A DNA stretch of 64,000 bases from a virus (IMGVR_UViG_3300021255_004000:32001-96000), one strand, 5' to 3'. Shown: positions 43,390-62,979, counted from the stretch's first letter. Made by a program: numbers and translations. The notes: generated by a model not told the origin, from the letters alone.

Positions 43390-43503
43390 GGCCTGTTGTA
43401 AATAGTGCAAGATTTTCAGTCTCGTGTGTCACCGTTTCACCTCATCAGGAAACCCTGATGGTGGGAGTCGAACCCACTTACGATAATAGGAACAACTTTT
43501 GCC
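43390..43503 (-). ncRNA. Y-like stem RNA copy 1 with circularly permuted tRNA-Phe(GAA)
   Basis: Order T-arm, acceptor hairpin, D-arm, anticodon arm inside the conserved stem. Confidence 0.8.
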
Positions 43504-43510
43504 TTATGAA

Positions 43511-43584
43511 AGCATCATATCGGATTCGAACCGACCCCTACTGCTTGGAGGGCAGTCGTGCTGAGCCGCTAACACTAATGATGC
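43511..43584 (-). tRNA. tRNA-Gly(TCC), C33
   Basis: Loop CCTCCAA; U73. Confidence 0.85.
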
Positions 43585-43597
43585 ATATTAAAGTTTT

Positions 43598-43671
43598 TGG
43601 GACCTCGAGGATTTGAACCCCGCACCCAGACATTATGAGTGTCGCGCTCTGACCCAATGAGCTAAGATCCC
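43598..43671 (-). tRNA. tRNA-CAT (probably Ile2, possibly Met)
   Basis: Loop CTCATAA; GGG acceptor. Confidence 0.8.
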
Positions 43672-43674
43672 ATA

Positions 43675-44050
43675 AAGATTACACAGTACTAAGAATCTGT
43701 ATCGAACGTCGTACTCGGCGGGATCCTTTTCACTGATGAAGTTGAGTGGCTACTGTGTATCACCATTGATATGACCTGCCGTGGGACACGGGCTTCATCA
43801 TCCTTTGAGCAGCAGTTTTGAGTGACGAGTTCAAAACTTTATTGCCTCTAAGTGCCGCAGGTTCTGTCAGTTGTTTGAGAAGGACAGCGTATGTTAGACG
43901 CTTCCTTAATTATTGTACACTTGGTACAACAATCTCTCGTGTTTCCCTTGTCTTTCAAATCAGGCGCAAGTAAGAAACAAAGCGTTATGGAACCACACAT
44001 AATTCACATCATTTGTTGAACTCATAACCCTAGAAATGCCAAAATCCCTA
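43675..44050 (-). ncRNA. Candidate large structured ncRNA (~370 nt)
   Basis: No credible ORF; many hairpins; TGTTAATATA motif just upstream. Confidence 0.45.
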
Positions 44051-44074
44051 TGTTTTTATATTAACATATTCAAG

Positions 44075-44147
44075 TCAGCCACCTGGGATTTGAACCCAGA
44101 ACCTAAGGATTAAGAGTCCCTCGCGCTAACCGTTGCGCCAGTGGCCG
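44075..44147 (-). tRNA. tRNA-Lys(CTT)
   Basis: Loop CTCTTAA. Confidence 0.9.
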
Positions 44148-44152
44148 ATAAG

Positions 44153-44223
44153 TGAGCGATACGGGAGTTGAACCCGTCTCAGCAGATTAAAAGTCTGCGG
44201 CAAAACCGATTTGCTAATCGCCC
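44153..44223 (-). tRNA. tRNA-Lys(TTT)
   Basis: Loop CTTTTAA. Confidence 0.85.
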
Positions 44224-44233
44224 GTAAATTGTT

Positions 44234-44306
44234 TGAGCTTGATGGGAATCGAACCCACGACCCACAGATTAAAAGTCTGTTGCTCTACCTATTGAGCTAC
44301 AAGCCC
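44234..44306 (-). tRNA. tRNA-Lys(TTT)
   Basis: Loop CTTTTAA. Confidence 0.95.
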
Positions 44307-44400
44307 ATAAGATACTCAAACAATTTAACAGGCTTTGTCTAAGGCAGCAATTACTGCTGCCACTTCCGCATTTCCTCTCATAATCATAATTTACTCCTTG

Positions 44401-44473
44401 AGATGAGGATGGGACTCGAACCCACCTGTAACAGTTTTGCAGACTGCTGCCTCACCAATTTGGCTACCTCATC
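44401..44473 (-). tRNA. tRNA-Cys(GCA)
   Basis: Loop CTGCAAA, U73. Confidence 0.9.
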
Positions 44474-44484
44474 ATAATTTTATT

Positions 44485-44556
44485 TACCGCGTGAAGGAGT
44501 TGAACCTTCCTAAGCCGTCTTGTAAGGGCGGTGCACAACCGATGTACCAACGCGGT
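44485..44556 (-). tRNA. tRNA-Val(TAC)
   Basis: Loop CTTACAA. Confidence 0.85.
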
Positions 44557-44566
44557 ATAAAGTTGA

Positions 44567-44649
44567 CGGAAGCGACAGGAATCGAACCTGCGACCTTTTT
44601 AGGGGAGACTGTTTTCAAGACAGTTTGATGCGCCAACCAACTCGCTTCC
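44567..44649 (-). tRNA. tRNA-Ser(TGA)
   Basis: Loop CTTGAAA, long variable arm, G73. Confidence 0.85.
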
Positions 44650-44657
44650 AAATGTAG

Positions 44658-44730
44658 GGTGCCCATCGGGATTCGAACCCGACCCTGAAGATCCACAATC
44701 TGCCGTGCTAACCGCTAACACTATGGGTAC
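44658..44730 (-). tRNA. tRNA-His(GTG)
   Basis: Loop TTGTGGA, C73; no encoded G-1. Confidence 0.85.
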
Positions 44731-44732
44731 AT

Positions 44733-44805
44733 TGCTGAAGGCAGGATTCGGACCTGCTACATCTGCCTTATGAGGGCAGCGTTCAACCGTATGAACTTCT
44801 TCAAC
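44733..44805 (-). tRNA. tRNA-Met(CAT)
   Basis: Loop CTCATAA; T-loop TCCGAAT. Confidence 0.8.
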
Positions 44806-44812
44806 ATAATAG

Positions 44813-44883
44813 CCCAAACTCAGGGATTTGAACCCCGGCTAGATGATCTTCAGTCACCTGTGCTACCGCTACACCAAGTTTGG
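44813..44883 (-). tRNA. tRNA-Phe(GAA)
   Basis: Loop CTGAAGA; atypical G37 and G73. Confidence 0.75.
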
Positions 44884-44888
44884 ATATC

Positions 44889-44962
44889 TGTGGCATCGGG
44901 GATTCGAACCCCGAAAATTTGCGTTCTTAGCGCAACAAGTATGCCAGTTCCATCAATGCCAC
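44889..44962 (-). tRNA. tRNA-Leu(AAG), short variable loop
   Basis: Loop CTAAGAA; Leu-type D arm, 5-nt variable region. Confidence 0.8.
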
Positions 44963-45570
44963 AAAAGTGTATTAGTTCGTTCATCGTATCTAATAAAGAT
45001 ACAATGAAGTCTACTTTTAATGTAGTCCTCTCTGGCTTTATCTTTCATCTTTCCTTTAACAGAATTGTGATAGCCTTTCTTTTCATCATATTCAAAAGCA
45101 ATGTTCAATTCTTTGTCATAGCCATCAAGGTGATATGGTCCAACACAAACTTCTCCGCCATTCATAGCGTGTTGTAAATGCCAACCATATTTTGCGTTCA
45201 GCTCATCAATGAACTTACAAGCATTTTCATTATAATTGCAATAGTTACCAAGATTGTGTCTTTTCCGCATCATCTCAGCAAGTTTTGCTCTTGTTTCAGG
45301 CGTATGAGTGTGGCCTTTCTTAATCTCACGATTAGGATTCAGTCCACAGTATCTCATATGTTGTGTTTTTGACTCCTTATTATTGAAGATTCTTCCGCAA
45401 AAGTCACAAAAACAAGTTTCTTTTCTATGAAGAGACCTTCCCAAGGAGTCAAGTCCTTGTTCTAATCTTTTTTCACAAGTTTTCTTATGTTCAAAATAGT
45501 TTCTTCTACCTTGAACAACACAACCACAATATTCACATTTCCAATTTTGAGCGTTTTTGTATGTTTTCAT
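44953..45570 (-). CDS. Homing-type endonuclease (Zn fingers, NUMOD3-like, Vsr/PD-(D/E)xK)
   Basis: CEYC, CDFC, HTPETRAKL, LDGYD...FEYDE; 3' end overlaps tRNA-Leu. Confidence 0.75.
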   Translation of the reverse strand: MKTYKNAQNWKCEYCGCVVQGRRNYFEHKKTCEKRLEQGLDSLGRSLHRKETCFCDFCGRIFNNKESKTQHMRYCGLNPNREIKKGHTHTPETRAKLAEMMRKRHNLGNYCNYNENACKFIDELNAKYGWHLQHAMNGGEVCVGPYHLDGYDKELNIAFEYDEKKGYHNSVKGKMKDKAREDYIKSRLHCIFIRYDERTNTLLWH

Positions 45571-45622
45571 ATCAATTAGTAAAGATTGGAAGACACACTT
45601 AACATCTCAAACCCATATTAAC

Positions 45623-45692
45623 AAAAAAGGCAACTCCTAAGAGCCGCCTTGAAAGATTTGTAAACTGTTTCTGCTTACAACTTCAAGGCTCT
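45623..45692 (-). promoter_or_regulatory. Attenuator 3: antiterminator/terminator
   Basis: Terminator AAGGCGGCTC-ttag-GAGTTGCCTT-TTTT; its 5' arm can instead pair with GCCTTGAAG spanning the leader stop. Confidence 0.8.
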
Positions 45693-45811
45693 AATACGAA
45701 ATGTTTTCCAAAGAGAGAACGAAGGACCATCTTCGAACACATACCGCATCCCAATACGAAACTAACAAATGAGGAATGTTTAACTATGTTCGACATCTTT
45801 GAAAAATTCAT
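45683..45811 (-). CDS. Leader peptide 3 (42 aa) MNFSKMSNIVKHSSFVSFVLGCGMCSKMVLRSLFGKHFVLEP
   Basis: AAGGA RBS; composition matches downstream tRNAs. Confidence 0.8.
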   Translation of the reverse strand: MNFSKMSNIVKHSSFVSFVLGCGMCSKMVLRSLFGKHFVLEP

Positions 45812-45893
45812 ATTCGTCAATCCTTAGCTATCAGGTTGCTACCCAAAATGTTTTTTCTTATTGAATAGTTAGTAAACAATTCAATAAAGTAAG

Positions 45894-45966
45894 TGGACCT
45901 ACCGAGCATCGAACTCGGACCTCAGGATTGCAGATCCCGTATGCCAGCCATTAACACCTTAAGCCC
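45894..45966 (-). tRNA. tRNA-Ala(TGC), C33
   Basis: Loop TCTGCAA; G3:U70. Confidence 0.85.
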
Positions 45967-45971
45967 ATAAA

Positions 45972-46092
45972 AATCTTCTGTTTATCCGCGAAGGTTGTTA
46001 CCAACTCTTCTTTCCTCTTGGAGGAACTGCTTTGTTTATTCTCCCGCTCCCGCATAACGCGTCGGTGTTGCGTTAGGAATTCACAGAAGATT
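45972..46092 (-). ncRNA. Candidate structured small RNA
   Basis: 10-bp closing stem AATCTTCTGT/ACAGAAGATT with internal hairpins. Confidence 0.45.
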
Positions 46093-46094
46093 AG

Positions 46095-46167
46095 TGGACC
46101 GTAGGGGAGTCGAACCCCTCTTTCCAGCGTGCAAAGCTGGAGTACTAAGCCGATATACGAACAGCCC
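46095..46167 (-). tRNA. tRNA-Ala(TGC)
   Basis: Loop TTTGCAC; G3:U70. Confidence 0.9.
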
Positions 46168-46174
46168 AAAATTA

Positions 46175-46260
46175 AAAGCGGGTTGTAAAAATTTCGCCGC
46201 AATGACGAAATATTGGAGTCGAACCAATAATTTCCGTTTAATAGGAACAACCTTTGCTTT
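46175..46260 (-). ncRNA. Y-like stem RNA copy 2 (T-arm plus acceptor-like hairpin)
   Basis: AGC-AAA-GGTTGT-TCCTA...ATTGG-TTCGACT-CCAAT...ACAACC-C-GCT. Confidence 0.75.
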
Positions 46261-46261
46261 A

Positions 46262-46333
46262 TTCCTCTGCTAGGATTCGAACCCAGAACAACTGATCCAG
46301 AGTCAGCAGTGTTACCAATTACACCACAGAGAA
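46262..46333 (-). tRNA. tRNA-Gln(CTG)
   Basis: Loop CTCTGGA. Confidence 0.9.
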
Positions 46334-46334
46334 G

Positions 46335-46406
46335 TCGGACGAGAAGGAGTTGAACCTTCGAAATCTCGGTCCCAGGCCGAGTGACATACCGCTTGCCGAC
46401 CGTCCG
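46335..46406 (-). tRNA. tRNA-Pro(TGG), C33
   Basis: Loop CCTGGGA; C1:G72, A73. Confidence 0.85.
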
Positions 46407-46414
46407 AAAATGAA

Positions 46415-46486
46415 AGCACCTGAAGGGAGTTGAACCCTCGCCTCAGCCTTGGCAAGGCCGCGTACTAGCCGTTATACTACAAGTAC
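46415..46486 (-). tRNA. tRNA-Gly(GCC)
   Basis: Loop TTGCCAA. Confidence 0.9.
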
Positions 46487-46495
46487 ATAAAATAT

Positions 46496-46570
46496 TGGGG
46501 TGGGTGGAATTGAACCACCGTGTAACCAACTAACCTTTCTGCGGTTTATCAGACCGAGGGTATACACCCC
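46496..46570 (-). tRNA. D-armless tRNA-Ile(GAT)-like RNA
   Basis: Acceptor GGGGTG/CACCCC, CGGT-CTGATAA-ACCG, long variable region, canonical T arm, no D stem. Confidence 0.6.
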
Positions 46571-46587
46571 ATTGTGTTTCAAGTTTT

Positions 46588-46660
46588 CAGGTGCGGAGAG
46601 ATTCGAACTCCCACCGACGGACTTGGAAACCGTAATGCTAAACCTTTACACCACGCACCT
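46588..46660 (-). tRNA. tRNA-Trp(CCA)
   Basis: Loop TTCCAAG; A1:U72, G73. Confidence 0.8.
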
Positions 46661-46668
46661 ATAAATCA

Positions 46669-46721
46669 TTAAAGGCTCAACTTTTAGTTGAGCCTGTAAA
46701 ATCCAAATTTTACTAGGCTCA
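46669..46721 (-). promoter_or_regulatory. Attenuator 2: antiterminator/terminator
   Basis: TGAGCCT-a-GTAAAAT-ttgg-ATTTTAC-AGGCTCA competes with AGGCTCAAC-taaaa-GTTGAGCCT. Confidence 0.8.
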
Positions 46722-46853
46722 CTTGATCTGCCACTGTCCTGAAATTGGGGCAATAGCTGCAACTGGTGCAAAGCCGGCGAAAGAAACTGGAAGACTAATG
46801 TGGCCGGCAAGTTTTACTGACTTAACTGATTTACAAACCATCATTGCTTTCAT
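46719..46853 (-). CDS. Leader peptide 2 (44 aa) MKAMMVCKSVKSVKLAGHISLPVSFAGFAPVAAIAPISGQWQIK
   Basis: AGGAG/AAGGA RBS, TGTTAATATA motif upstream; stop TGA begins the antiterminator arm. Confidence 0.8.
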   Translation of the reverse strand: MKAMMVCKSVKSVKLAGHISLPVSFAGFAPVAAIAPISGQWQIK

Positions 46854-46958
46854 ATTGTCCTTTCTCCTATAATTTTATATTAACAACTTTTCAGAAGTTT
46901 CTGAAAAATTATTTTCAATATTTAGTTAGTACAGTTGCAAAAACTGTAAGAGTTTTAA

Positions 46959-47040
46959 TCGGCCAGGAGAGACTCGAACTCTCAATCCACACGGCGTCCG
47001 ACCTTAATTCGGATGTGTATACCAATTCCACCACTGACCG
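46959..47040 (-). tRNA. tRNA-Leu(TAA)
   Basis: Loop ATTAAGG, long variable arm. Confidence 0.85.
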
Positions 47041-47047
47041 AACAAAA

Positions 47048-47230
47048 TTAACTATCCTTTAAGTATGCAACAGTTTTTCCATTTTCAAACATTTCTTGTT
47101 GAAGTTTGGAAATCTTGTTGTAAAGATCTTGGCAAATGCCTTTTGATCTTCCACTTAAATGGAAGCGTGCCATATGTCCTAGCACGAATGCAAGTTCTTG
47201 CAATCTCTCGTTATCGAGTTTGATTGTCAT
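47048..47230 (-). CDS. Small hypothetical protein
   Basis: AAGGAG RBS before MTIKLD. Confidence 0.55.
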   Translation of the reverse strand: MTIKLDNERLQELAFVLGHMARFHLSGRSKGICQDLYNKISKLQQEMFENGKTVAYLKDS

Positions 47231-47275
47231 ATAGACTCCTTGCACCACCAATTTTTTAATGAAATTGGAAACATT

Positions 47276-47342
47276 GGCGAGCTGTAGCAAATATACATTA
47301 ACAGTGTATTGCCTCATCGGCGTAATAGGAACAACTTATGCC
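47276..47342 (-). ncRNA. Y-like stem RNA copy 3 displaying an Asn(GTT) anticodon stem-loop
   Basis: GGC-ATA-AGTTGT-TCCTA...ATACA-CTGTTAA-TGTAT...ACAGCT-C-GCC. Confidence 0.75.
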
Positions 47343-47351
47343 TAACATGTG

Positions 47352-47433
47352 TGGCCGCAGGAAGTTTTGCCATCTCTTCGTCCCCCGACTTACAAGGTCG
47401 GTGCTCTTAGGGCAGTCTGAGCTACATTTGGCC
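47352..47433 (-). pseudogene. Aberrant tRNA-Thr(TGT)-like element
   Basis: D arm and CCGAC-CTTGTAA-GTCGG intact; T loop and acceptor non-canonical. Confidence 0.5.
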
Positions 47434-47434
47434 T

Positions 47435-47740
47435 TTGCTGCATCATAAAAAGACAACGCAGCGAAATCCGAAGTTTTTCTTTCAGTTGCCACAACCAAGT
47501 ATTTTTCAACCCACGTCTCATTAAGACAACCTACACTGGAGCTTTTGGTAAAACTTTCTACCCATATTCATCATACGGTAACCATTGTAAAGGCCTTTAT
47601 GCTTGTTCCGCCAGGCTCCCCGCTGACCAAGCTGATGTCTCGGTAATTTTTCATACCAGCCTCACCTTGGGCTCATACTTCCTTTCCCCAAGTACTCTTA
47701 GGTTTTCACGCGACCTAAACTATCCCACGAGTTTGAAAGA
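47435..47740 (-). ncRNA. Candidate large structured ncRNA (~300 nt)
   Basis: GC-richer than coding DNA, many hairpins, no credible ORF. Confidence 0.4.
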
Positions 47741-47751
47741 GTTTGCTTTCT

Positions 47752-48054
47752 CTAGTAATAACACCACCATTTGATACGACAAGTTTCACTGTCGAAGCAT
47801 TCAGTAAGAATGTTATCAATTTCCTCTTCCGTTGTATCAATATTAACAGATTTCAGTCTGCTTCTGATAAGTCCACGAGAATCTTTTTTCTTCTCGGAAC
47901 GGTCTCCTTTCATCGCACGGCGAGCGTAACGATCACAAGGATTTCCCCAACGGAACCAGAATCTTCGAGCTTCCTGTGTACCGCGTCTTGCGGTATATTC
48001 ACCGTAGCTGAAGTTTGCCTTATAAAAGGCGCTCTCGCAATAATCATTTAACAT
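47752..48054 (-). CDS. Small basic hypothetical protein
   Basis: AGGAG RBS; 100 aa. Confidence 0.6.
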   Translation of the reverse strand: MLNDYCESAFYKANFSYGEYTARRGTQEARRFWFRWGNPCDRYARRAMKGDRSEKKKDSRGLIRSRLKSVNIDTTEEEIDNILTECFDSETCRIKWWCYY

Positions 48055-48251
48055 CTAGTGTATCTCCTACACTATCCGTAAGTCATACGCGATCCTCCTA
48101 TTATAGCATCATCGTTCACAGGATCGAACTGCAACCGTACAGACCTTTAGAGCCTATCCGTTTTACCCCACACAGGGCGATGTTGCTTATGGTTGAACGA
48201 GATGGCAACAACATTACTTGTACACCAACGTCATCTGCTATAAAACTAAGA

Positions 48252-48333
48252 TGGGCCAAAGGAGAGTCGAACTCCTAATCCTTTCGGCGACTGCTTTTGA
48301 GGCAGTTGCGTATACCAGTTCCGCCATTAGCCC
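48252..48333 (-). tRNA. tRNA-Leu(CAA)
   Basis: Loop CTCAAAA, long variable arm. Confidence 0.9.
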
Positions 48334-48339
48334 AAATGA

Positions 48340-48412
48340 TTGCGGGAGGTGGACTCGAACCACCGACCTTCGGGTTATGGGCCCGATAAGCTGCCAACTG
48401 CTCTATCCCGCG
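48340..48412 (-). tRNA. tRNA-fMet(CAT), C33
   Basis: C1:A72 mismatch, GGG/CCC anticodon stem, loop CCCATAA. Confidence 0.9.
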
Positions 48413-48427
48413 ATGTAACATGTGTTT

Positions 48428-48503
48428 TGACGCTGACAGGACTCGAACCTGCGACACCGAGCTTAGAAGGCTCGTGTTCTTATTCCAGCTGAACTACAGC
48501 GCC
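48428..48503 (-). tRNA. tRNA-Arg(TCT)
   Basis: Loop CTTCTAA. Confidence 0.9.
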
Positions 48504-48685
48504 ATATTGAAAGTACTTTATACGTCGGACCAGTCCGTTCAGCTTTCGCCTAGGGAGTTTCGAGGCTCCCACCTACGCATATCAACTTTCTGTGTGCTTT
48601 TCGGGCTTCTTCTACTAAGCACTTAAACTTTCAGTTCTGCTAGAAACCAAAGTTCTTGACGTTCTCTCTAGCAATGAGAACCGTA

Positions 48686-48760
48686 TAGCTGTTGCAGGAG
48701 TCGAACCTGCTATCGTAAAGGATATGAGCCTCACATATTGAACCGTTCTACCCAACAGCG
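48686..48760 (-). tRNA. tRNA-Met(CAT)-like, initiator-like variant
   Basis: Loop CTCATAT; 1:72 mismatch; weak D stem. Confidence 0.65.
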
Positions 48761-48767
48761 ACGTACA

Positions 48768-48891
48768 AAAAGACGAGTTGTATTATTCGTGCTCTAACCG
48801 CTGAGCTATCCGCCCACGAACGAGCGGAGTTGGATTCGAACCAACGACCCCGTGCTTAAAAGGCAACAAATAGGAACAACTTATGTCTTTT
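48768..48891 (-). ncRNA. Y-like stem RNA copy 4 with circularly permuted tRNA-Lys(TTT)
   Basis: TGC-CTTTTAA-GCACG, T arm, acceptor hairpin, D arm, then CG, all inside the conserved stem. Confidence 0.85.
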
Positions 48892-48893
48892 AG

Positions 48894-48966
48894 CGGTGTA
48901 TGCGGGAATCGAACCCGCCATCTCCTGCGTGACAGGCAGGCGAAATAGCCGATATTCAAATACACC
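48894..48966 (-). tRNA. tRNA-Asp(GTC)
   Basis: Loop CTGTCAC, G73. Confidence 0.9.
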
Positions 48967-49175
48967 AAATAAACAAACCACCTTCCAAACGGAACGCCCG
49001 ATACTTGATCTTAATGTCCGCACTTATCCAAGAGTTTCATTTCGCGCGAGAAACTCTCGGGGGTTAGGGAGCTACAGGTGCCTAGGCTTACTACGATTAA
49101 GCCAACAAATGCGAGCTCGTCTCACAAAGGTTTGTACTTTTTGCCAACTTCTGTCTAGAATGAAGTTGAAAGTAG

Positions 49176-49263
49176 TGGGCCGAGAGGGAGTCGAACCCCC
49201 GATGTTTGCCGTAAAGGTGACGGATTTACAGTCCGCTGACTTCGCCACTGGTCACACCGACCC
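49176..49263 (-). tRNA. tRNA-Tyr(GTA)
   Basis: Loop CTGTAAA, long variable arm. Confidence 0.9.
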
Positions 49264-49329
49264 ATAAAATTGATGGCCGTGCTCATCACACATTTACAAC
49301 ATCGTTTCGAGCAATGTTACCATCAAGTA

Positions 49330-49402
49330 AGCTACTTGTAGGACTTGAACCCACAACATCCTGATTACAGGTCAGGCGCTCTACCATTGGAGCTAAAGTA
49401 GC
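49330..49402 (-). tRNA. tRNA-Thr(TGT), C33
   Basis: Loop CCTGTAA; G1:C72, C2:G71. Confidence 0.85.
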
Positions 49403-49558
49403 ACAATAAAAGATAAATTACATTTTTTCTTTCCATACATCTTTCATTCTAATTTGTCCGCGGTCACTGAACGAAGAAGATGGTTGTATTAGATGTTCTA
49501 TAACTTTTCGGGGCCTTAAGCCCGTATTGAGTGTTTCAACATCAGTCTCTTATCTTTA

Positions 49559-49631
49559 AGCCGCCTGAGGGATTTGAACCCACAACATCCGCATTACAGG
49601 TGCGGCGCTCTACCATTGGAGCTAAGGAGGC
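49559..49631 (-). tRNA. tRNA-Thr(TGT), C33
   Basis: Loop CCTGTAA; paralogue of 49330-49402. Confidence 0.85.
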
Positions 49632-49634
49632 ATA

Positions 49635-49706
49635 CAGTTCCGAAAGGAGTCGAACCTTCGTTCTCTGGATGAAAACCAGATGGCCTAGCCGTTAGCCGAC
49701 GGAACC
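49635..49706 (-). tRNA. tRNA-Glu(TTC)
   Basis: Loop TTTTCAT. Confidence 0.9.
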
Positions 49707-49787
49707 AAAAACTGTGAACTACTTCTAAGACTGGACGGAAGTATAGCAGCTCGTTCAAAAGATATATTGACTTTCAAACTTTTGTCT

Positions 49788-49872
49788 CGTATCAGGCAGG
49801 GCTCGAACCTGCGATGGGCTTTCGCTCGGCAGATTAACAGTCTGCTGTCTTCGACCACTCGACCACTGATAC
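49788..49872 (-). tRNA. tRNA-Asn(GTT) with long variable arm
   Basis: Loop CTGTTAA, G73, class-II-like body. Confidence 0.85.
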
Positions 49873-49879
49873 ATATTTA

Positions 49880-50431
49880 TTATGTTAAAAAGATTTTTAC
49901 TTCTTCTATAAAGATTTTAGGATTATTGAAAATATCTTTCCAAGATTTTCTCAATTCTTTCCATCCTTCTTCATTCAGAAGTTTATCTTTCTGAACATCT
50001 CTTTCTTTTTGCTCTTGAAATCTTTCGTGTTGTTCACCATCAATTTCAACGCAAAGTTTTTTGTCAGGCCAAGCAAAGTCCAAAGAAAACCTATGAAAAG
50101 GAACTTCTCTGTAATAATCTTTATCAATTTCTTGACCAAATTCATTTCTCATCATTGTAATAAACCACTCCTCAGGATATGAAGGTTTATTATTCCAACG
50201 ACAATCTCCAATGTTATGAGCTCGACCTTCAGCGTGAGCTTTTTTCATCGAAGCAGAAATCTTTTGTCTAACATCATCCGACATTGTATGTCCGCAATGA
50301 TCCTTCAACTTCTGTCTTGTTTCTTCTGACAAAACAGGTTTTTCTTTTCCAAGAGCTTTAGCCTTAGTATATTGATTTGTACCGTGGCCTTTTCTTGCGT
50401 GCATTGCATCGTACCATTTTTGACTTTTCAT
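49880..50431 (-). CDS. Homing-type endonuclease (NUMOD3-like plus Vsr/DUF559-like)
   Basis: SEETRQKL, SDDVRQKIS repeats; LDFAW...VEIDGEQH...D..L...GW. Confidence 0.8.
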   Translation of the reverse strand: MKSQKWYDAMHARKGHGTNQYTKAKALGKEKPVLSEETRQKLKDHCGHTMSDDVRQKISASMKKAHAEGRAHNIGDCRWNNKPSYPEEWFITMMRNEFGQEIDKDYYREVPFHRFSLDFAWPDKKLCVEIDGEQHERFQEQKERDVQKDKLLNEEGWKELRKSWKDIFNNPKIFIEEVKIFLT

Positions 50432-50519
50432 ATCAATTAGTACGGTCCTCCGCTCTACATGTGTCCCTATCGTCGGAACCTATTGTCAACATCTTATCGT
50501 CGGTCCCTATTGTCGGTAG

Positions 50520-50593
50520 CGGGATATGCGAGCATCGAACTCGCGACCTCTAGCGTGACAGGCTAGCGTGGTAGCCAACTCCACCAATACCCC
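50520..50593 (-). tRNA. tRNA-Asp(GTC)
   Basis: Loop CTGTCAC. Confidence 0.9.
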
Positions 50594-50807: not shown

Positions 50808-50880
50808 TAGATCTTGCGGGGATCGAACCCACTCCTCCACCTTGAAAGGGTGGCGACTCAACCTTTTTGTCCTAAGATCC
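50808..50880 (-). tRNA. tRNA-Glu(TTC)
   Basis: Loop CTTTCAA. Confidence 0.85.
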
Positions 50881-56412: not shown

Positions 56413-56422
56413 ATTGACTCCT

Positions 56423-56719
56423 TTAGTCTATATTAACTTTGCGGTCATATTTCATACCCCATTTTATAACTTTTTTGCAATTCTTCCAATAAAGACTTGT
56501 ACAAGAAAATGTAACACAATCTTTTGGAAGTTGTGATTCACTGTCAGTGTAAATCGGATTGAAAGCAACAACAACGCCCATATATTTCATTGTCTTGTGA
56601 AAATGATACACAGGTCTTTTTGAAAAGAAACATTGAAGTGTTTCGTGGCATTTTGTGTTGCCTATCCAATAAACAACTTCAACAGTTTCCCAAGCAGCTT
56701 TCTTGTCGTACTTAGTCAT
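56423..56719 (-). CDS. Hypothetical protein
   Basis: Coupled ORF, GAGG RBS. Confidence 0.55.
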   Translation of the reverse strand: MTKYDKKAAWETVEVVYWIGNTKCHETLQCFFSKRPVYHFHKTMKYMGVVVAFNPIYTDSESQLPKDCVTFSCTSLYWKNCKKVIKWGMKYDRKVNID

Positions 56720-56897
56720 TTGTCACCTCAATTCCCAAATGTTTTAACATCAAGCGGCAGCCCCAAGAAAATGTTTTGAAACGAGATGGATCCATCTGAT
56801 GTTCTTTTTGATAATCTTTTTCCCATTTCTCACCTTCTCCTGTCCAAAGGTCACAGACAAGATTTTGAAAATCTGCAACATTCATTTTCTCAGGCAT
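56712..56897 (-). CDS. Hypothetical protein
   Basis: Start MPEKMN after AAGGAG. Confidence 0.5.
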   Translation of the reverse strand: MPEKMNVADFQNLVCDLWTGEGEKWEKDYQKEHQMDPSRFKTFSWGCRLMLKHLGIEVTND

Positions 56898-57918
56898 TCT
56901 TTTTCTCCTTAAGTAATGGACATTTGTCACCACATACATTGCAAGTTTCCTGAATATCCATTGCCCCGAAAAGATTTATGTGAGCAGAACATTGTGTTCT
57001 TTGTTTTTCTTTCTTTGCGATAATCGGATCTTCTTCCTCGTGAGCTTCCCACCAATCATTTGCAATTCCATTCACAAGTTTTGCAACTCGCCATTTCTGA
57101 CACTCATCTTCAACATCTTCAACGGTTGGCATCTTGATATGTTCACTGCGGGAAAGCATACACTCTGTTGAAATATCAAAACCTTCTTTCAGTGCAAGTG
57201 TGTAACCAATGATTGCGTTCAATTCATCATAACCATTTACAGCATCAGTAAGCAGAGGACCCATTGCACAAATGCGTCTTGTTCCTAAAATGTATTTGTA
57301 AATTGGAAACTCAGAAATTGGGACATGCCCGAATGCTTCGATTTGATAGTCAAGAATTGTTGCATCACTGAACTTATCATAAAAGTCGCAAGCAACTCTC
57401 AATTCATCGATTGTAAGTTTATTTGCTTTTTCACAAGCGCCCGGGCGAAGAGATGTACCCAAAAAGATTGTGTGTACGCCGCAGTCATATGCATAAAGAA
57501 CAAGTTCACTGAAGTTTTTGTAAAATGGATTTTCCCACTGATCATCTTTTTCAATTTGTTCACGAAGGAACTGACCACCGCGGGAATTGATAACATATCC
57601 GCTTCTTTCTGCTTCACGAATAAGATAAGCAGGTGTAATATGAAAAGTCATTGCTTTTACACCATAAGACGCCTGCCGTTTGATTGTATCTTTGATGTCT
57701 TCTTCAAAAAGAATACTTTCATAAATCGGCGCAGAACAAAGAATGACATTTTTGCCAACTTTGTCCCGAACGGATTCCCAAAGAGCTTTCACTCTTGGTT
57801 TGTCAACTGAAATAACACTGACATAATCGATGTTGTACTTGGAAGCGAGCTCGAGTTTTTTCAACTCATCTGTAAATGATTGCTCGGGATATGACAACCC
57901 AATGTTTAATTTAAGCAT
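56890..57918 (-). CDS. ThiC-like non-canonical radical-SAM protein
   Basis: SRGG, LRPG, GHVP, GPLLTD...GYD, EHIKMP, C-terminal CNVCGDKCP. Confidence 0.75.
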   Translation of the reverse strand: MLKLNIGLSYPEQSFTDELKKLELASKYNIDYVSVISVDKPRVKALWESVRDKVGKNVILCSAPIYESILFEEDIKDTIKRQASYGVKAMTFHITPAYLIREAERSGYVINSRGGQFLREQIEKDDQWENPFYKNFSELVLYAYDCGVHTIFLGTSLRPGACEKANKLTIDELRVACDFYDKFSDATILDYQIEAFGHVPISEFPIYKYILGTRRICAMGPLLTDAVNGYDELNAIIGYTLALKEGFDISTECMLSRSEHIKMPTVEDVEDECQKWRVAKLVNGIANDWWEAHEEEDPIIAKKEKQRTQCSAHINLFGAMDIQETCNVCGDKCPLLKEKKNA

Positions 57919-57930
57919 TTATTGCTCTCC

Positions 57931-58119
57931 TTAGTGTGAAATATGTTTGTCTACATATTCAAGATTGAGATGATTTTCAACAACACCAACTTGAACATTC
58001 AAGAGGTCATTGTACAATGAATGCATTCTCAAACATCGTTCAATGCACTGCAATTCATTGTAGTCAAGCTTTTCTTGATTCTTTATTTTGTCAAAAAGTT
58101 TCTGCTCCCAATCACCCAT
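57931..58119 (-). CDS. Hypothetical protein
   Basis: 62-aa ORF, GAGGAG RBS. Confidence 0.5.
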   Translation of the reverse strand: MGDWEQKLFDKIKNQEKLDYNELQCIERCLRMHSLYNDLLNVQVGVVENHLNLEYVDKHISH

Positions 58120-58276
58120 TCAACAGCTCCTCAGCTCTCTCAACTGCTTTTGTATAACTTTTACTCTGATTAAGAGTTTCAACAATATGTTTTGGAAGAG
58201 CTTCATTTAACGCAAGAAGTACTCCTGCAAATAAAGCTCTGTCCTCAACAAGTTGAACAACATCATAGTCCATTGC

Positions 58277-59512
58277 TCACTCCTCAGTACCATCAGTCAT
58301 CTGCATACCCATAAGGTGCAAAGTATCACGGTACAGTGTTCTTGAGTTTTTACCCTTTTCAATGAAAGCATCAAAAAGTTCATCAGCTTTCTTTCCATAA
58401 AGTTGTTTGAACAAAGCAGCATCTTCTGGAAAATCTTCATTCACTGAAGTGTAGAACTCTTTCTTATCTGCATACTTTGCTGCGATTACTGTGTTGACAT
58501 ATTCAACTTTTTCTTCAAGCCATTTACGGTACAGCTGAACATTGTGAGAGATTTCCTCAACACGAGCTTTTACTTTTGGATCAGCAGCGCAAAGGTCATC
58601 AACTTCATTCATACAGTAATATTTGAACAAGCGGTTGTCACCGAAGTCTTCGCCTCTTGACTCAAACTTTACGCGAATGTAATCATCGATTTTGACTTTT
58701 ACACGGTTGAAATATTTATCACATACAACAACGCCTTCACCGTTATCTTTTACATTCCAACCTGCAAGTACATCAAGCATTTCCTTTGCGGATTTGAAGT
58801 TGTACATCTTTGGAGTTTCAAAAGGAAAATGGAATCTTTCTTTTGCTTCAGTGAAAGTTATTTCATCGCCACTTGGCATACGGAAACCAATAAGCCAAAG
58901 TTTTGCATCTTTTACCAAGTCAGTGTGAATTCTGTTCCAAGGTGACTCCAGTTCAAACATTGCTGTTGAACCTTCAGGCATTCTTTTTGCCCATTCACAA
59001 TCAGAGAAAAGGAAACCATCTGAGAAGAAAGCTGATGAAACGTCATTCTTTAATGCCCGCAAAAGAACATCAGACATATTGTTCAATCTTGGCAAGCCTG
59101 GGACATAATCAACAGGAGCGCCTTTCTCATTCTCAGTAATCACACGACCGTTTGACATCCAATAAACATTGCCGTGCCATTTGAACGCTTTGAAAATCCA
59201 GCCGTCACGCTTGTGGGAAACCCAAGCAGAATCCCAGTCAATGTCAGCAGCAACGCCTTCATCTTTGTAATTCCAAAACTTTGTGAATGGAGCACAGATG
59301 ATTTCACCTGTAGTTTTGTCAATTACAGTACCACGACACTGACACATTATATCAAAGATTTCCTTGTCATCAGGCATATCCATAAGATTGTACATAAGTA
59401 CAACCCAGTTGCGGCCTTCAACAGGATAAATGGATTTCATATTTGGTCTGAGGATTTCTTCCCAATTTGGATTTGATTTTACGAAGTTTTCAAGTTTCTC
59501 AAAGTGTTTCAT
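58277..59512 (-). CDS. T4 Rnl1-type RNA ligase
   Basis: CRG...PFTKFWN, HKRDG (motif I), FELESPWNRI, EGVVV, RVKVK. Confidence 0.85.
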   Translation of the reverse strand: MKHFEKLENFVKSNPNWEEILRPNMKSIYPVEGRNWVVLMYNLMDMPDDKEIFDIMCQCRGTVIDKTTGEIICAPFTKFWNYKDEGVAADIDWDSAWVSHKRDGWIFKAFKWHGNVYWMSNGRVITENEKGAPVDYVPGLPRLNNMSDVLLRALKNDVSSAFFSDGFLFSDCEWAKRMPEGSTAMFELESPWNRIHTDLVKDAKLWLIGFRMPSGDEITFTEAKERFHFPFETPKMYNFKSAKEMLDVLAGWNVKDNGEGVVVCDKYFNRVKVKIDDYIRVKFESRGEDFGDNRLFKYYCMNEVDDLCAADPKVKARVEEISHNVQLYRKWLEEKVEYVNTVIAAKYADKKEFYTSVNEDFPEDAALFKQLYGKKADELFDAFIEKGKNSRTLYRDTLHLMGMQMTDGTEE

Positions 59513-59534
59513 TTATGATACCTCCGTATAAATA

Positions 59535-59768
59535 TTAACAAACTTCTTTAAGGAAGTCGAACTTGATAAGATTTTTATAAGATGTTCCTGATGAACCTGA
59601 TCCTTTTGCAATTTTCAAAGGAAGTTCACCATTCTTGTGAATAATTGCATTTCCTTTAGGAGATTCTTCAACACCAAAAACTTCTCCTTCTTTAAGTTCA
59701 ATCGATGTAAACTTGCCTTCCTGACGGCCATAGATGATCCAATTTGAAGTTGTTTTGAATGTTTTCAT
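59535..59768 (-). CDS. Small hypothetical protein
   Basis: AAGGAG RBS, early promoter upstream. Confidence 0.6.
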   Translation of the reverse strand: MKTFKTTSNWIIYGRQEGKFTSIELKEGEVFGVEESPKGNAIIHKNGELPLKIAKGSGSSGTSYKNLIKFDFLKEVC

Positions 59769-59798
59769 AATTTGCTCCTTTATCTGATTTACAAAAAT

Positions 59799-59827
59799 AA
59801 TATAAAAGATTTACATTAAAAGTTCAA
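59799..59827 (-). promoter_or_regulatory. Early-type promoter TTGAAC-N17-TATATT
   Basis: Conserved repeat; upstream of the RNA ligase gene run. Confidence 0.8.
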
Positions 59828-59860
59828 AAATTATAATAAATTATCCTTGTATTCTTATTA

Positions 59861-59888
59861 TTATATTGTCCCATATAGCTAAAAAAGT
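59861..59888 (-). repeat. 28-bp perfect repeat, copy 3 (inverted)
   Basis: Reverse complement of 9215-9242. Confidence 0.9.
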
Positions 59889-59905
59889 CATTTTGACATT
59901 TTCTG

Positions 59906-60115
59906 TCAATCTGTCAACCATTTCTTTTTTGCCCATTTTTTGCCTTCTTCTATTGAGTTGACAATTTTTGTGTCAATTAAGTTTGCGCCGCCCATAACCC
60001 ATACTTCATATTTAGGACTGTTCTTTCTTTGACAAATTGAAATAATAAAGCCATCATCTTCTTCCCAATACCAAGCTTTCAACTTTTTATCATATTCCCA
60101 CATATCTTTTCCCAT
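59906..60115 (-). CDS. Small hypothetical protein
   Basis: 69-aa ORF. Confidence 0.5.
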   Translation of the reverse strand: MGKDMWEYDKKLKAWYWEEDDGFIISICQRKNSPKYEVWVMGGANLIDTKIVNSIEEGKKWAKKKWLTD

Positions 60116-60164
60116 AAAAAAACCCGAGAATTAAATCTCGGGTTCTCGATCTATTTACTGTCAA

Positions 60165-62066
60165 TTACTCAACAAGTTTAATAAGGTCGTTTTTGCTCAT
60201 CTGAGTAAGGTCAATGTCAGGCTCATCTTCAACAAACTCAAAACCTGCGGCAGCAAGTAAGTCGTTCAACTTGATGTAGCTGTTTGCTTTTACCTTGCCC
60301 TGTGCTTCAATAATTTTCATCATTGAAACAGAAGGCACTCGTGCAGCACCAGCTTCCATATCTGACATAAAGATTTTGCCATCTTCAATTTTTGCAACAA
60401 CCTTTTGACCATAAGTATCGTGCTGAAGTTCTGCTTCAAACACAATCTTGTTTGGGTCAACCATCGCGTCTTTAGCGCTATATCTGCGGTTCATTCTGTC
60501 CATATTTGCTTTGTCTGGGTCAACAGCAACGAAAAGTTTGAACTTTGAATGCTCATCTCCTGAGAACTTGTTGATTGAAATTACACCATCAGGAGCGCCC
60601 TTTCCGATGTAAATACATTCGGCAGCTTCAGGATTTGCGCTTGTCATATCACCAGAGTAGATGATCTTGCCATACTTACCACCGTGATAGTCGCCGTTCC
60701 AACCATAATGCTGGCCTGTCTTGCTGACATAATGAAGGTCATAGTCTCTTACGCCCCATTCATCACGCCAGTAAATGCCGAATACATTGTCCTTCTCTGC
60801 GAGAGGAATTGCAGTACCCATAGGATAGTTGCCAACAAAGTTCTTTTCAGAAGTTGGAATTGTCAACTCAAGACCCTTAGGAAGTTTGATTCTTGTTGGT
60901 CTTTCGAGAACAACATCATTTCCTTCAGCATCTTTTGTTGTAACCTTTGTGATGGCTTTCTTTGCCAAGTTGTTGATGTATGAGTCCTTAAGGATTGCAT
61001 ACAACTCAGCAAGGTACTTTTCATCACAAGAAGCCTGATAACCTTCGCGAACGAAAGTCTTTCCGTTTCTGATTACAAACATACGGCCTTTAACATCCTG
61101 ACCGTTCACGCGTTCCATAATGCCCTGCATAAGCTGACCTTTCTTGAAGGCAGTCAAAGAATCAACTTTTTCTGCTGCTTCTTTAAGATAAGCGTCCTGC
61201 TGACCTTCAGGATTGAAACATCTTTCCCAGAAACCAATCTTCATTGGCTTGTGGTTCTTAACAGCCAACTTACGAATGTGGTTGATTGTTGTATGTGTTT
61301 CAGCGCATTTCATTGCAAGAATAAGCGGCTTGTAACGATAGAAGATAGTTGACAGAGCAACATCTCTTTCGCTCAAGATCTTGTTCAAGTCTTTCTTCTG
61401 CTTTGCAGGCAATGCAGCAACCAAGCTTTTGATACGAGCGATTGACTCTCTTGACTTAACAAGCATTGCTGTGTCCTGTGTCAAAAGATACATAACAACA
61501 CGCAATACTGAAATTGGCTGCTTAGGGTATGCGCCCATCTGAACAGCGAAGATAGCCTGAGCTTCTTTGTTTGCAATTTCATCAACATCAACTTTGTTCA
61601 AGAAGTCATAATCTTTGATGTAGTCCATCAAAAGCTGAAGTGTCTTTTCGTTGATTGCAATGCCTGACTTCAACATTCCGTAGCACTCTTCGAAGATTTC
61701 ATCTTCTGTTGCAGGAAGAATGACTTTGTACTTTTTGTACTCGATTACAGGCGGTTCATCGTTCGGAACATAGCCGTTGCCTTCCTGAGTATGGCCTGTA
61801 CCATAAGTTGAAGCATAATGCATCCACTGGTCAAAAGCGAGCTCGAGGCGATCCTTTGATACAACATCTTCAAATGTTTTGTAGAAAGTTGAGTTTGGAT
61901 TGTAAGTCTCATTCTCGAGAAACTTTACAATTTCTTTGCTTCCGCAGCAATCTGGGTGGACAAGGTAACCTGCCTTCATAGCCTTTTCGTTTACTGCTTT
62001 GAATGTTGCAAGGTCACAAGTACAAGAAGGAGCTTTGTTAAAAAGCTGAATAAGTTTCCAGTTCAT
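60165..62066 (-). CDS. ROT/TROVE-like helical protein with C-terminal TerD-like domain
   Basis: N-terminal NSTFYK...DQWMHYASTYG, helical middle, TerD-like FGIYW...DYDLH...YSGDMTSA...AAECIYI. Confidence 0.6.
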   Translation of the reverse strand: MNWKLIQLFNKAPSCTCDLATFKAVNEKAMKAGYLVHPDCCGSKEIVKFLENETYNPNSTFYKTFEDVVSKDRLELAFDQWMHYASTYGTGHTQEGNGYVPNDEPPVIEYKKYKVILPATEDEIFEECYGMLKSGIAINEKTLQLLMDYIKDYDFLNKVDVDEIANKEAQAIFAVQMGAYPKQPISVLRVVMYLLTQDTAMLVKSRESIARIKSLVAALPAKQKKDLNKILSERDVALSTIFYRYKPLILAMKCAETHTTINHIRKLAVKNHKPMKIGFWERCFNPEGQQDAYLKEAAEKVDSLTAFKKGQLMQGIMERVNGQDVKGRMFVIRNGKTFVREGYQASCDEKYLAELYAILKDSYINNLAKKAITKVTTKDAEGNDVVLERPTRIKLPKGLELTIPTSEKNFVGNYPMGTAIPLAEKDNVFGIYWRDEWGVRDYDLHYVSKTGQHYGWNGDYHGGKYGKIIYSGDMTSANPEAAECIYIGKGAPDGVISINKFSGDEHSKFKLFVAVDPDKANMDRMNRRYSAKDAMVDPNKIVFEAELQHDTYGQKVVAKIEDGKIFMSDMEAGAARVPSVSMMKIIEAQGKVKANSYIKLNDLLAAAGFEFVEDEPDIDLTQMSKNDLIKLVE

Positions 62067-62089
62067 TTAAGAACCTCTTAAAAAGTAAC

Positions 62090-62145
62090 AGGCGGGTTGT
62101 AATTTGAAAAACTTTCATATTCCTTGTTAGGAACAACCGTTGCCT
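62090..62145 (-). ncRNA. Y-like stem copy 5, in the 5' region of the ROT-TerD gene
   Basis: GGC-AAC-GGTTGT-TCCTA...ACAACC-C-GCC ending 24 nt before ATG. Confidence 0.75.
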
Positions 62146-62152
62146 TAAATAG

Positions 62153-62420
62153 TGGAATGGGAAGGAGTCGAACCTCCCTAGACAATACATTACTGTACCG
62201 TCTTAATTTCGTGCAGCATCTGATTACTGATGTGAGGTCTTTGCAGTCTTACCTATCAGCCTTTCATAGCAACACCCGACCCTTAGCTTGCTTTCAGTGG
62301 CCTGCATACCCCCTAATAACAAACCCAATCGGAATGCCCAAAGTCTTACTCTGGATTCCACTTTTAGCTAGAAGATACTTGTTCGCGGCCAACGAACTTC
62401 TCTCTAGTCCCGTTCACTCC
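62153..62420 (-). ncRNA. ~270-nt RNA with tRNA-like 3' end (tmRNA-like layout)
   Basis: GGAGG-TTCGACT-CCTTC T arm and CCATTCCA end; possible 5' GGAGTG partner. Confidence 0.45.
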
Positions 62421-62757
62421 ATAATATTTTTGCGTTTCCCCAACTTCCAACCTGAACAGTCTCTAACTGTTCAACTTTGAAAGGAGCAGTGGCCGAACCA
62501 ACTCTGGAAACAACAAGTTCAAAGTTTTTGTATTTTGTTTTAAGACTTTTTGTTATAAGCTTTTTTACATTGTTGTAAAGTTTCTGATTGTAGTCATTCT
62601 TTCTGCCTTTGTTAAGCATTGTGTAATGAACAACAGCAGTTTTCTCTTTTGAAAGGTCTGGGATTCTCAAGTCAGGTCGTTTCCCGGGCTTAAGTTCAAC
62701 ACCGTAGATTTCGCCGTTATAATTGCAGCTTACAACCCAATGATTCTGTAGAATCAT
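62404..62757 (-). CDS. Hypothetical protein
   Basis: GGAGG RBS before MILQ. Confidence 0.55.
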   Translation of the reverse strand: MILQNHWVVSCNYNGEIYGVELKPGKRPDLRIPDLSKEKTAVVHYTMLNKGRKNDYNQKLYNNVKKLITKSLKTKYKNFELVVSRVGSATAPFKVEQLETVQVGSWGNAKILWSERD

Positions 62758-62785
62758 AAAAACCTCCAAAAGATAATGTTTAGCA

Positions 62786-62916
62786 GAGCGGGAATTATTG
62801 AAACCCGTCCTCGGCGGCTTCTCCCCAGCTAGGGAAAGTGTAGCAATCCACTCGCATCCTAAGATGCCCTAGCACTGAAGTATAATTTGCGTTAAGATAG
62901 GAACATTCCTATGCTC
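62786..62916 (-). ncRNA. Y-like stem RNA copy 6 with multibranch cargo
   Basis: GAGC-ATA-GGAAT-GT-TCCTA...ATTCC-C-GCTC. Confidence 0.65.
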
Positions 62917-62927
62917 AGTAAACATGG

Positions 62928-62979
62928 TCGGCGAGAAGTAAAACAAATCCCGATTGTAAATAGGAACCTCTTATGCCGA
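62928..62979 (-). ncRNA. Y-like stem RNA copy 7 (minimal)
   Basis: CGGC-ATA-AGAGGT-TCCTA...ACTTCT-C-GCCG with compensatory changes. Confidence 0.7.

Follow-up and report, generated by a model that had tools for sequence, protein, structure and literature searches.

Ro60, Y RNAs and related systems

In the Ro60 (Rsr) systems, including the versions carried by mycobacteriophages and by the Thermus phage phiLo, a dedicated protein is accompanied by one to several adjoining small RNAs (Y RNAs or YrlA), the ends of which are closed into a bulged stem, the presumed binding site, that presents a variable part; the genes are additionally linked to those of RNA ligases and repair enzymes (PMC4201824, PMC12135203). 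YrlA RNAs contain closed-acceptor tRNA-like domains with T and D arms (PMC4201824), and in phiLo the Y RNAs are located just upstream of the gene for the Ro60-type protein (PMC12135203). A module that shares these features, the closed-acceptor tRNA-like domain being found in some of its RNAs, is described here from a stretch of viral DNA, IMGVR_UViG_3300021255_004000:32001-96000 (64,000 nt in total, hereafter the window), in which seven small RNAs, referred to as handle RNAs, accompany the gene of a 633-aa protein, P0001. The handle RNAs and the protein family are each other's only conserved partner, so that a direct complex between them is very probable, and it is moderately probable that they constitute a two-part viral module, a protein with its own small RNAs, that resembles a Ro/Y ribonucleoprotein (RNP) by analogy. 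The components are as follows (bit scores and E-values refer to the covariance model R1, which is introduced below):

43389–43504, minus strand: handle RNA copy 1, between two tRNA genes, with spacers of 6–8 nt
46175–46260, minus strand: handle RNA copy 2, within the tRNA array (R1 40.2 bits, E 2e-9)
47276–47342, minus strand: handle RNA copy 3 (R1 31.6 bits)
48768–48891, minus strand: handle RNA copy 4, with tRNA genes on both sides, 1–7 nt off
60165–62066, minus strand: 633-aa partner protein P0001, with a helical N-terminal domain (1–370), a TerD-fold β-sandwich (~421–590) and C-terminal helices
62090–62145, minus strand: handle RNA copy 5 (R1 44.7 bits, E 8e-11)
62786–62916, minus strand: handle RNA copy 6, in which stem B is irregular; the weakest of the seven
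62928–62979, minus strand: handle RNA copy 7 (R1 50.2 bits, E 2e-12)

The module differs from the Ro60 systems in several respects. The TerD sandwich of the 633-aa protein stands in the place of the vWA domain of Ro60, the handle reads GC-AWA-RRNNGU-UCCUA rather than GNCGAA or GGUCCGA, and the RNAs mostly enclose a short hairpin, are arranged in arrays of up to nine copies and have their last copy abutting the ribosome-binding site. Since every membership test that could be run either failed or gave no decision, the resemblance to Ro60/Y RNA is taken as an analogy; the likeness is one of design, and common descent cannot be shown.

In type III toxin-antitoxin systems (ToxIN-like), tandem RNA units likewise directly precede the gene of the presumed binder and share its strand. 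However, the handle units share structure and not sequence (stem B is identical in only 11% of within-locus pairs), the protein of ~630 aa has no ToxN/AbiQ or PADLOC match, and no space for a terminator is left between the handle array and the gene. TerD proteins, such as the tellurite-resistance TerD and SCO6318, are single-domain proteins of ~190 aa, whereas here the domain is embedded in a 633-aa protein together with a 370-aa helical domain; TerD proteins are not known to have an RNA partner.

Architecture of the handle RNAs in the window

As drawn from the seven window copies, the handle consists of a stem A of 3–7 bp, the last pair of which is G-C, a 3-nt bulge (AUA, AAA or AAC) opposite one unpaired C of the 3' strand, and a stem B of 6 bp, in which RGNNGU is paired with ACNNCY, followed by UCCUA. 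The heptamer GUUCCUA, i.e., the terminal GU of stem B together with UCCUA, is invariant among the seven copies. An earlier reading of this DNA made without database searches (the sequence-only reading) had placed seven minus-strand copies in the window; the structural scan finds them at those positions, which correspond to the 3' ends of the RNAs, and the compensatory changes listed for both helices are correct. The uniform drawing of stem and bulge holds overall, with small corrections required for three copies: in copy 1, the best drawing gives stem B 5 bp and the bulge 4 nt, opposite AG; one U.G pair occurs in copy 3; and copy 6 has an irregular stem B of 5 bp, or of 7 bp with a bulged A, and is missed by both the structural descriptor and model R1. 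The observation that the stem departs from the canonical Y RNA motif also stands, as GNCGAAN0-1G and GGUCCGA are absent from all seven copies, which carry GUUCCUA instead. Letter by letter, GUUCCUA matches the vertebrate Ro-binding GGUCCGA at five of seven positions.

The pattern in the window is more than chance, because GTTCCTA occurs 17 times against an expectation of 5.6 ± 2.0 (a count of 17 was reached in 0 of 100 shuffles) and because R1, which was trained on other genomes only, recovers four of the seven copies with E-values of 2e-12 to 8e-7, the next-best match in the 64-kb window having an E-value of 0.15. The three copies that R1 misses carry inserts of 87–110 nt. Copy 5 ends 23 nt ahead of the ATG of the 633-aa protein, adjoining the ribosome-binding site, while the copies in the tRNA array lie 1–8 nt from the adjoining tRNA genes, a spacing at which tRNA processing would free the RNAs at the base of stem A.

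Covariation and strand of the handle in relatives

Relatives of the locus were gathered via the protein, which yielded 79 viral loci and 78 loci from genomes or metagenome-assembled genomes (MAGs). The strict structural descriptor gives 219 matches on the strand of the gene versus 43 on the opposite strand and 30 in shuffled sequence; nearly all of the 131 distinct clean instances lie upstream of the gene at a distance of no more than 1 kb, where they form tandem sets with one to nine members. With the covariance model R1, built from 73 short-insert copies, 72 of the 79 viral loci are positive (192 matches), as are 63 of the 78 genome/MAG loci (81 matches). All 273 matches lie on the gene's strand, and the loci that remain negative mostly have little sequence upstream of the gene.

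In the training alignment of 73 copies, 98.0% of the cells are paired and 8 of the 11 pairs are changed on both sides; in an independent alignment of 67 copies from genome/MAG and cultured-phage loci, 97.4% are paired and 10 of the 11 pairs are changed on both sides. The covariation score is 0.72 in both alignments, versus ~0.2 for shuffled alignments and 0.10–0.20 with the pairing partners slid. Pairing was a selection criterion for the training alignment, and the independent alignment was obtained by fitting to the model; such selection, however, cannot account for the way the copies cluster in position and strand. Where just one non-Watson-Crick pair is permitted, it is G.U in 45 instances and A.C in 2, and the structure is therefore read as RNA of the gene's strand. 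Thus, the covarying RNA family proposed in the sequence-only reading is real.

The core variant, UCCUA or UCCUU, is specific to the locus: 98% of within-locus pairs agree versus 77% expected (0 of 500 shuffles), and the handle core of the cyanophages is UCCUU. The bulge sequence is not significant as a locus-specific feature, since 43 of 500 shuffles reached the observed value. The handle does not conform to the kink-turn motif, in which tandem sheared G.A pairs follow a 3-nt bulge, as both of the pairs at that place in the handle covary in Watson-Crick fashion (GC 38 / AU 30 and GC 48 / AU 24), and no family in Rfam 15 matches the handle motif. In phage Phass-1 (OQ749652, L084), six handle RNAs are found at 8985–9449, downstream of the gene, where they overlap a coding sequence annotated as 'hypothetical protein' (8992–9291), which is probably a mis-annotation.

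Partnership of the handle RNAs with the protein family

The motif and the family of the 633-aa protein co-occur whichever of the two is taken as the starting point, and they do so in viruses of widely differing hosts. Starting from the RNA, an 18-nt pattern of the 5' half of the handle was searched in IMG/VR, where 101 stretches matched, and 123 matches in 97 loci were examined. The protein is present in the locus for 69 structurally complete and 3 incomplete matches; it is not in the locus for 24 complete matches and for 27 incomplete ones, the latter being chance-like. The whole records were inspected for ten contigs that carry a complete motif with no protein nearby: all four that are at least 28% complete encode the protein elsewhere, and the six without it are fragments of 2–30%.

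The last copy is separated from the ATG by a median of 20 nt (interquartile range 14–41; 99 loci), and by 60 nt or less in 78% of loci; half of the loci hold a single copy by the strict descriptor. Copies remote from the gene occur in tRNA arrays, i.e., in the window (43–49 kb, with the gene at 60–62 kb), in loci L010–L013 (~6 kb) and in Synechococcus phage S-CBWM1, and copies downstream of the gene occur in L025, L036 and Phass-1. The contigs that carry the module are binned to Bacteroidales, Fibrobacter, Treponema, Planctomycetes, Chloroflexi, Methanobacterium, Thermoplasmata and Asgard archaea, and many of the genome/MAG contigs among them are probably phages or proviruses; cyanophages and rumen phages are also carriers. 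This wide host range argues against a host factor that reads the handle. Among deposited phage genomes, three contain both parts, namely the cultured Synechococcus phages S-CRM01 (g174) and S-CBWM1 (gp22) and the gut phage Phass-1.

All-against-all clustering of the open reading frames (ORFs) of 80 loci revealed no shared protein family besides the partner protein. As the RNA and the protein are each other's only conserved partner, from viruses of cyanobacterial to those of archaeal hosts, a direct RNA-protein complex is the most economical explanation of this mutual exclusive partnership.

Structure of the partner protein

The protein family comprises more than 1,100 relatives of P0001, in about 1,232 clusters at 50% identity, which are mostly viral and 600–690 aa long; many are encoded on contigs of 200–500 kb, and the exact P0001 sequence is present on contigs of up to 230 kb. 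No Pfam family matches any of 35 diverse members at E-values up to 1, and searches of NCBIfam, PHROGs, PADLOC and the sequences of the Protein Data Bank (PDB) gave nothing meaningful for the family. Fused forms longer than 1,232 aa were not found, which is weak evidence.

An AlphaFold model of P0001 was generated from 35 sequences, with a predicted local distance difference test (pLDDT) score of 84.5. In this model, residues 421–590 form a TerD-type sandwich (2qz7_B, Z 9.2 over 131 residues with a root-mean-square deviation (rmsd) of 3.1; 2kxt, Z 7.9), so that the TerD part of the sequence-only reading is borne out by the predicted structure. The Pfam TerD family PF02342 has no sequence match in P0001 or the 35 members; TerD is carried only by an Atlas neighbour cluster, on 22% of its members, and a BFVD relative is named 'tellurium resistant like'. 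Structural look-alikes are also found in Campylobacter and Lactobacillus phages. Additionally, predicted structures of the MXAN_6230/SCO0854 RING-domain family (Prok-RING_4) of Actinomycetota superpose on the model over 584 residues (template modeling (TM) score 0.70 by query and 0.48 by match); these proteins differ in their length of ~990 aa and in their RING domain, and no link at the sequence level was found. A Foldseek search of the whole model against the PDB was discarded, as it produced only meaningless long alignments with a TM score of ~0.1.

The N-terminal helical domain was also folded alone (pLDDT 81), and Foldseek returned no match for it at E ≤0.001. The invariant residues R265 and H272 are spaced as Rx6H, within the Rx4-6H pattern of HEPN domains; the searches gave no HEPN fold or family match for the protein, so the spacing is a lead only.

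Inserts carried by the handle

The handle accommodates inserts from 9 to more than 130 nt. Insert length has a median of 29 nt over 395 distinct instances, 56% of which have inserts of at most 31 nt. In the window, folding of each insert bears out the difference in cargo among the seven copies. The 87-nt insert of copy 1 is a tRNA-like cloverleaf with a T arm, a closed acceptor and an anticodon-like arm (loop CUGAAAA), to which the handle is attached at the position of the variable loop. Copy 2 encloses a T arm with a closed 8-bp acceptor minihelix (55 nt), and copy 3 encloses two hairpins, one of which has the anticodon-like loop CUGUUAA (40 nt). In copy 4, the handle stands in the place of the anticodon loop of a tRNA-like domain with T and D arms and a loop-closed acceptor stem (89 nt); this part scores 32 bits with the Rfam YrlA model at 48788–48852, against a threshold of 69. 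Copies 5 and 7 carry minimal hairpins of 27 and 21 nt, respectively, and copy 6 an insert of ~110 nt, which in one relative's contig is swapped for a diverged sequence of the same length with the flanks kept (joint at 62807/62905).

Some of the inserts had previously been described as permuted tRNAs; they are indeed tRNA-like, and are better called closed-acceptor tRNA mimics of the YrlA type than permuted tRNA genes. Maturation of a permuted tRNA by cutting and ligation was considered and rejected, as the place of the anticodon loop or of the variable arm is taken by the handle and the joined ends give no sensible anticodon arm. Likewise, a hammerhead-like CUGAUGA...GAAA in copy 1 turned out to be the closed acceptor stem. 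Seven inserts from relatives fold as cloverleaves of normal order in which the CCA is encoded, and in most of these a tetraloop, e.g., GAAA, takes the place of the anticodon loop (such inserts occur in L176, L177, L247, L214, L018 and L066). The tetraloop and closed-acceptor forms are thus tRNA-like bodies that lack an anticodon or a free acceptor end. In the short inserts, UGG is enriched (32% versus 12% in shuffles) and could pair with the UCC of the handle core.

Genomic context of the module

The window is phage-like and encodes ~37 tRNA genes at 43.2–52.8 kb on the minus strand. It has no near-identical relative among deposited phage genomes (INPHARED), and the sequencing runs that contain its DNA are from sheep, bovine and other gut samples. 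Two enzymes of tRNA or RNA metabolism were identified by family matches:

41161–42549, minus strand: CCA-adding enzyme with an HD domain, at the far end of the tRNA array
58277–59512, minus strand: T4 Rnl1-type RNA ligase, just downstream of the gene of the 633-aa protein

Across 80 loci, a Pnkp-like pair (metallophosphatase and P-loop kinase) is found near the module in 15, an Rnl1 ligase in 9 and a CCA-adding enzyme in 9, and a gene of one of these three kinds lies directly downstream in at least five lineages; the remaining frequent neighbours are replication genes. tRNA genes are located within 10 kb of the module in ~35 of 60 loci.

Family searches also revealed homing-endonuclease-like ORFs in the window; a DUF559/HNH-type endonuclease ORF lies inside the tRNA array (49880–50431, minus strand), and the interval from the array to the module contains a ThiC-like radical-SAM ORF (56890–57918, minus strand). 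A structured RNA of ~210 nt at 62152–62362 (minus strand), between a 121-aa ORF and handle RNA copy 5, combines a T arm and a large structured insert with an acceptor-like stem of 7 bp (GUGGAAU/AUUCCAC), and has a folding z-score of -4.0 and no match from ARAGORN or Rfam. The tRNA-Arg(cct) that ARAGORN calls at 46204–46280 (minus strand) overlaps copy 2 and the neighbouring tRNA-Gln; the call is probably spurious, prompted by the T-arm minihelix in copy 2. Contigs from RNA libraries of rumen and gut runs span the region, with depth peaks over the RNA array, and are not informative on ends, strand or level. Their highest depth, 365 in run X1 and 70 in X5, is reached at ~47400–47700, a stretch just upstream of copy 3 with no tRNA or Rfam match, where another abundant RNA may be present.

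Proposed mechanism

The handle RNAs would be transcribed on the strand of the gene, and those in the tRNA array of the window are probably excised by tRNA processing enzymes. Their 5' and 3' ends would pair into a constant handle, composed of stem A, the 3-nt bulge opposite C, stem B and UCCUA or UCCUU, which would enclose a free-form insert, i.e., a short hairpin in most relatives and a tRNA-body mimic in this phage and some others. The protein is predicted to recognise the handle, and the resulting RNP to display the insert. As a copy lies beside the ribosome-binding site, self-regulation is suggested, in which the protein probably controls its own translation through the copy that ends ~20 nt ahead of the ATG. 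It might further be speculated that the RNP acts on tRNA or RNA damage during infection as a decoy or adaptor, much like Ro60-Y RNA.

A role in tRNA/RNA repair, or in countering tRNA-targeting defences, is proposed tentatively; it is suggested by the tRNA-array setting, the tRNA mimics and the Rnl1, Pnkp-like and CCA-adding neighbours in several lineages, a context that is found in a subset of loci. Somewhat more doubtful is the wider proposal of a widespread class of viral RNPs, in bacterial and probably archaeal viruses, in which a universal handle displays modules as a decoy or adaptor in tRNA conflicts and which would have evolved independently of Ro60/Y RNA. The modules of such a class would comprise tRNA-body mimics that offer no usable anticodon or acceptor end, mimics of anticodon loops, and plain hairpins.

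Several observations weigh against these readings. The N-terminal domain has no recognisable RNA-binding fold, its best structural matches being generic helical repeats (Z 6.8; VIA-align, Atlas). A T arm is present in only 54 of the 395 inserts (14%), mostly in the 61–100 nt class, and by a strict count only 20 of 104 loci have a T-arm insert; the tRNA-mimic cargo highlighted in the sequence-only reading thus applies to some inserts and is a minority feature across the family. The RNA-repair neighbours are likewise restricted to a minority of loci (9–15 of 80), and the RNA-library contigs prove the presence of the region and not of small RNAs with defined ends. Given that T arms are rare among inserts and loci, a tRNA-related function may be limited to a subset of the family.

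Alternative explanations

The handle could be a cis-acting leader only, with the protein or a ribosome-occluding fold acting on the 5' untranslated region of its own mRNA and no role in trans. The short distance of the last copy from the ATG (a median of 20 nt, and 60 nt or less in 78% of loci) and the single copy in half of the loci by the strict descriptor are what such a leader would show. Nevertheless, copies far from the gene in tRNA arrays (the window, L010–L013 and S-CBWM1), copies downstream of it (L025, L036 and Phass-1) and arrays that reach nine copies are at odds with it, and structured tRNA-like inserts would be purposeless in an operator, which makes this explanation improbable.

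An equally low probability is assigned to the handle as a processing site that the protein, as a nuclease, would cut to free the inserts, comparable to Cas6 with CRISPR repeats or ToxN with ToxI. The tandem units directly upstream of the gene fit this scheme, as do the normal-order cloverleaves with encoded CCA, for which the handle would be a leader-trailer duplex, and the invariant R265-x6-H272, with its HEPN-like Rx4-6H spacing. However, profile and structure searches did not find a nuclease fold or family, the units lack the near identity of the repeats in type III toxin-antitoxin systems, and the closed-acceptor inserts need the handle to hold together.

It is very unlikely that the module is a genuine Ro60/Y RNA system that has diverged to an extreme degree, with a degenerate TROVE ring as the N-terminal domain of the protein. 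Such a system would accord with the position of the RNAs upstream of the gene, as in phiLo (PMC12135203), and with the closed-acceptor tRNA-like inserts, which the YrlA model matches below its threshold. Ro60 (1yvp_A), whose fold is a HEAT-repeat ring, can also be aligned to the full P0001 model over 276 residues (Z 4.8, rmsd 4.7), a value within the noise for helical proteins, and it is outside the top 50 structure matches of the N-terminal domain alone. The sequence-only reading had called the protein ROT/TROVE-like, which is not sustained: Pfam gives no TROVE match for 35 members at E-values up to 1 and no vWA match for P0001 or these members, the position of the C-terminal vWA domain of Ro60, which has a MIDAS site, being taken by the TerD sandwich, and hhalign against a Ro60 alignment, a narrow profile of 76–91% identity, returns a probability of 0.3%. 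Membership among the Y RNAs fails on the absence of the Rsr-binding GNCGAA motif, to which the absence of GGUCCGA is added. The scan with Rfam YrlA (RF02553) stays below the gathering score of 69 bits, the inserts scoring 32 bits (window), 37 bits (L017) and 25 bits, and only the tRNA-like part is matched; copy 4 has a YrlA-type tRNA-like domain and copies 1 and 2 have parts of one, and none is seen in copies 3, 5 and 7 or in most relatives.

TROVE is absent from four complete carrier genomes, and no Ro60-like ORF is found in the window or in 162 related loci, with a single exception, the only such case in 164 loci. In this locus, L136, from the chromosome of a Planctomycete MAG (Bythopirellula), a genuine Ro60 gene (7591–9240, minus strand; 549 aa, with TROVE and a Ro60-type vWA) lies two genes from the family member, with a PcfJ-like gene between them, and the locus has its own handle RNA at 3845–3889. 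Such an adjacency would favour common descent; its occurrence in 1 of 164 loci argues against it.

Finally, the idea that the repeats act as DNA, i.e., as protein-binding sites, an origin or recombination sites, named in the sequence-only reading as an outcome that would overturn it, is suggested by the clustered, tandem copies and is close to refuted, as all 273 matches lie on one strand, single mismatches are G.U and not A.C (45 versus 2) and covariation preserves pairing and not sequence.

Implications for phage biology

The preferred reading of a viral module formed by a protein and its own small RNAs addresses a large annotation gap, in which a common phage protein family is nameless in Pfam, PHROGs, NCBIfam and PADLOC. 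Full-text searches of the literature gave no description of the motif or the protein family, and an anonymous entry among the 10,006 viral candidate RNAs of a 2023 catalogue is possible (PMC10690425). The RNA-protein pairing provides this unannotated gene with a concrete hypothesis, namely that it encodes an RNA-binding protein with known ligands, and the presence of the module in two cultured cyanophages makes it experimentally accessible. The short, insert-tolerant handle is also an attractive natural scaffold for RNA display. If binding is confirmed, the module would represent a second, apparently independent invention of the Ro/Y design, and would help to explain why tRNA mimicry recurs on such scaffolds and what roles the tRNA islands of phages play beyond codon supply.

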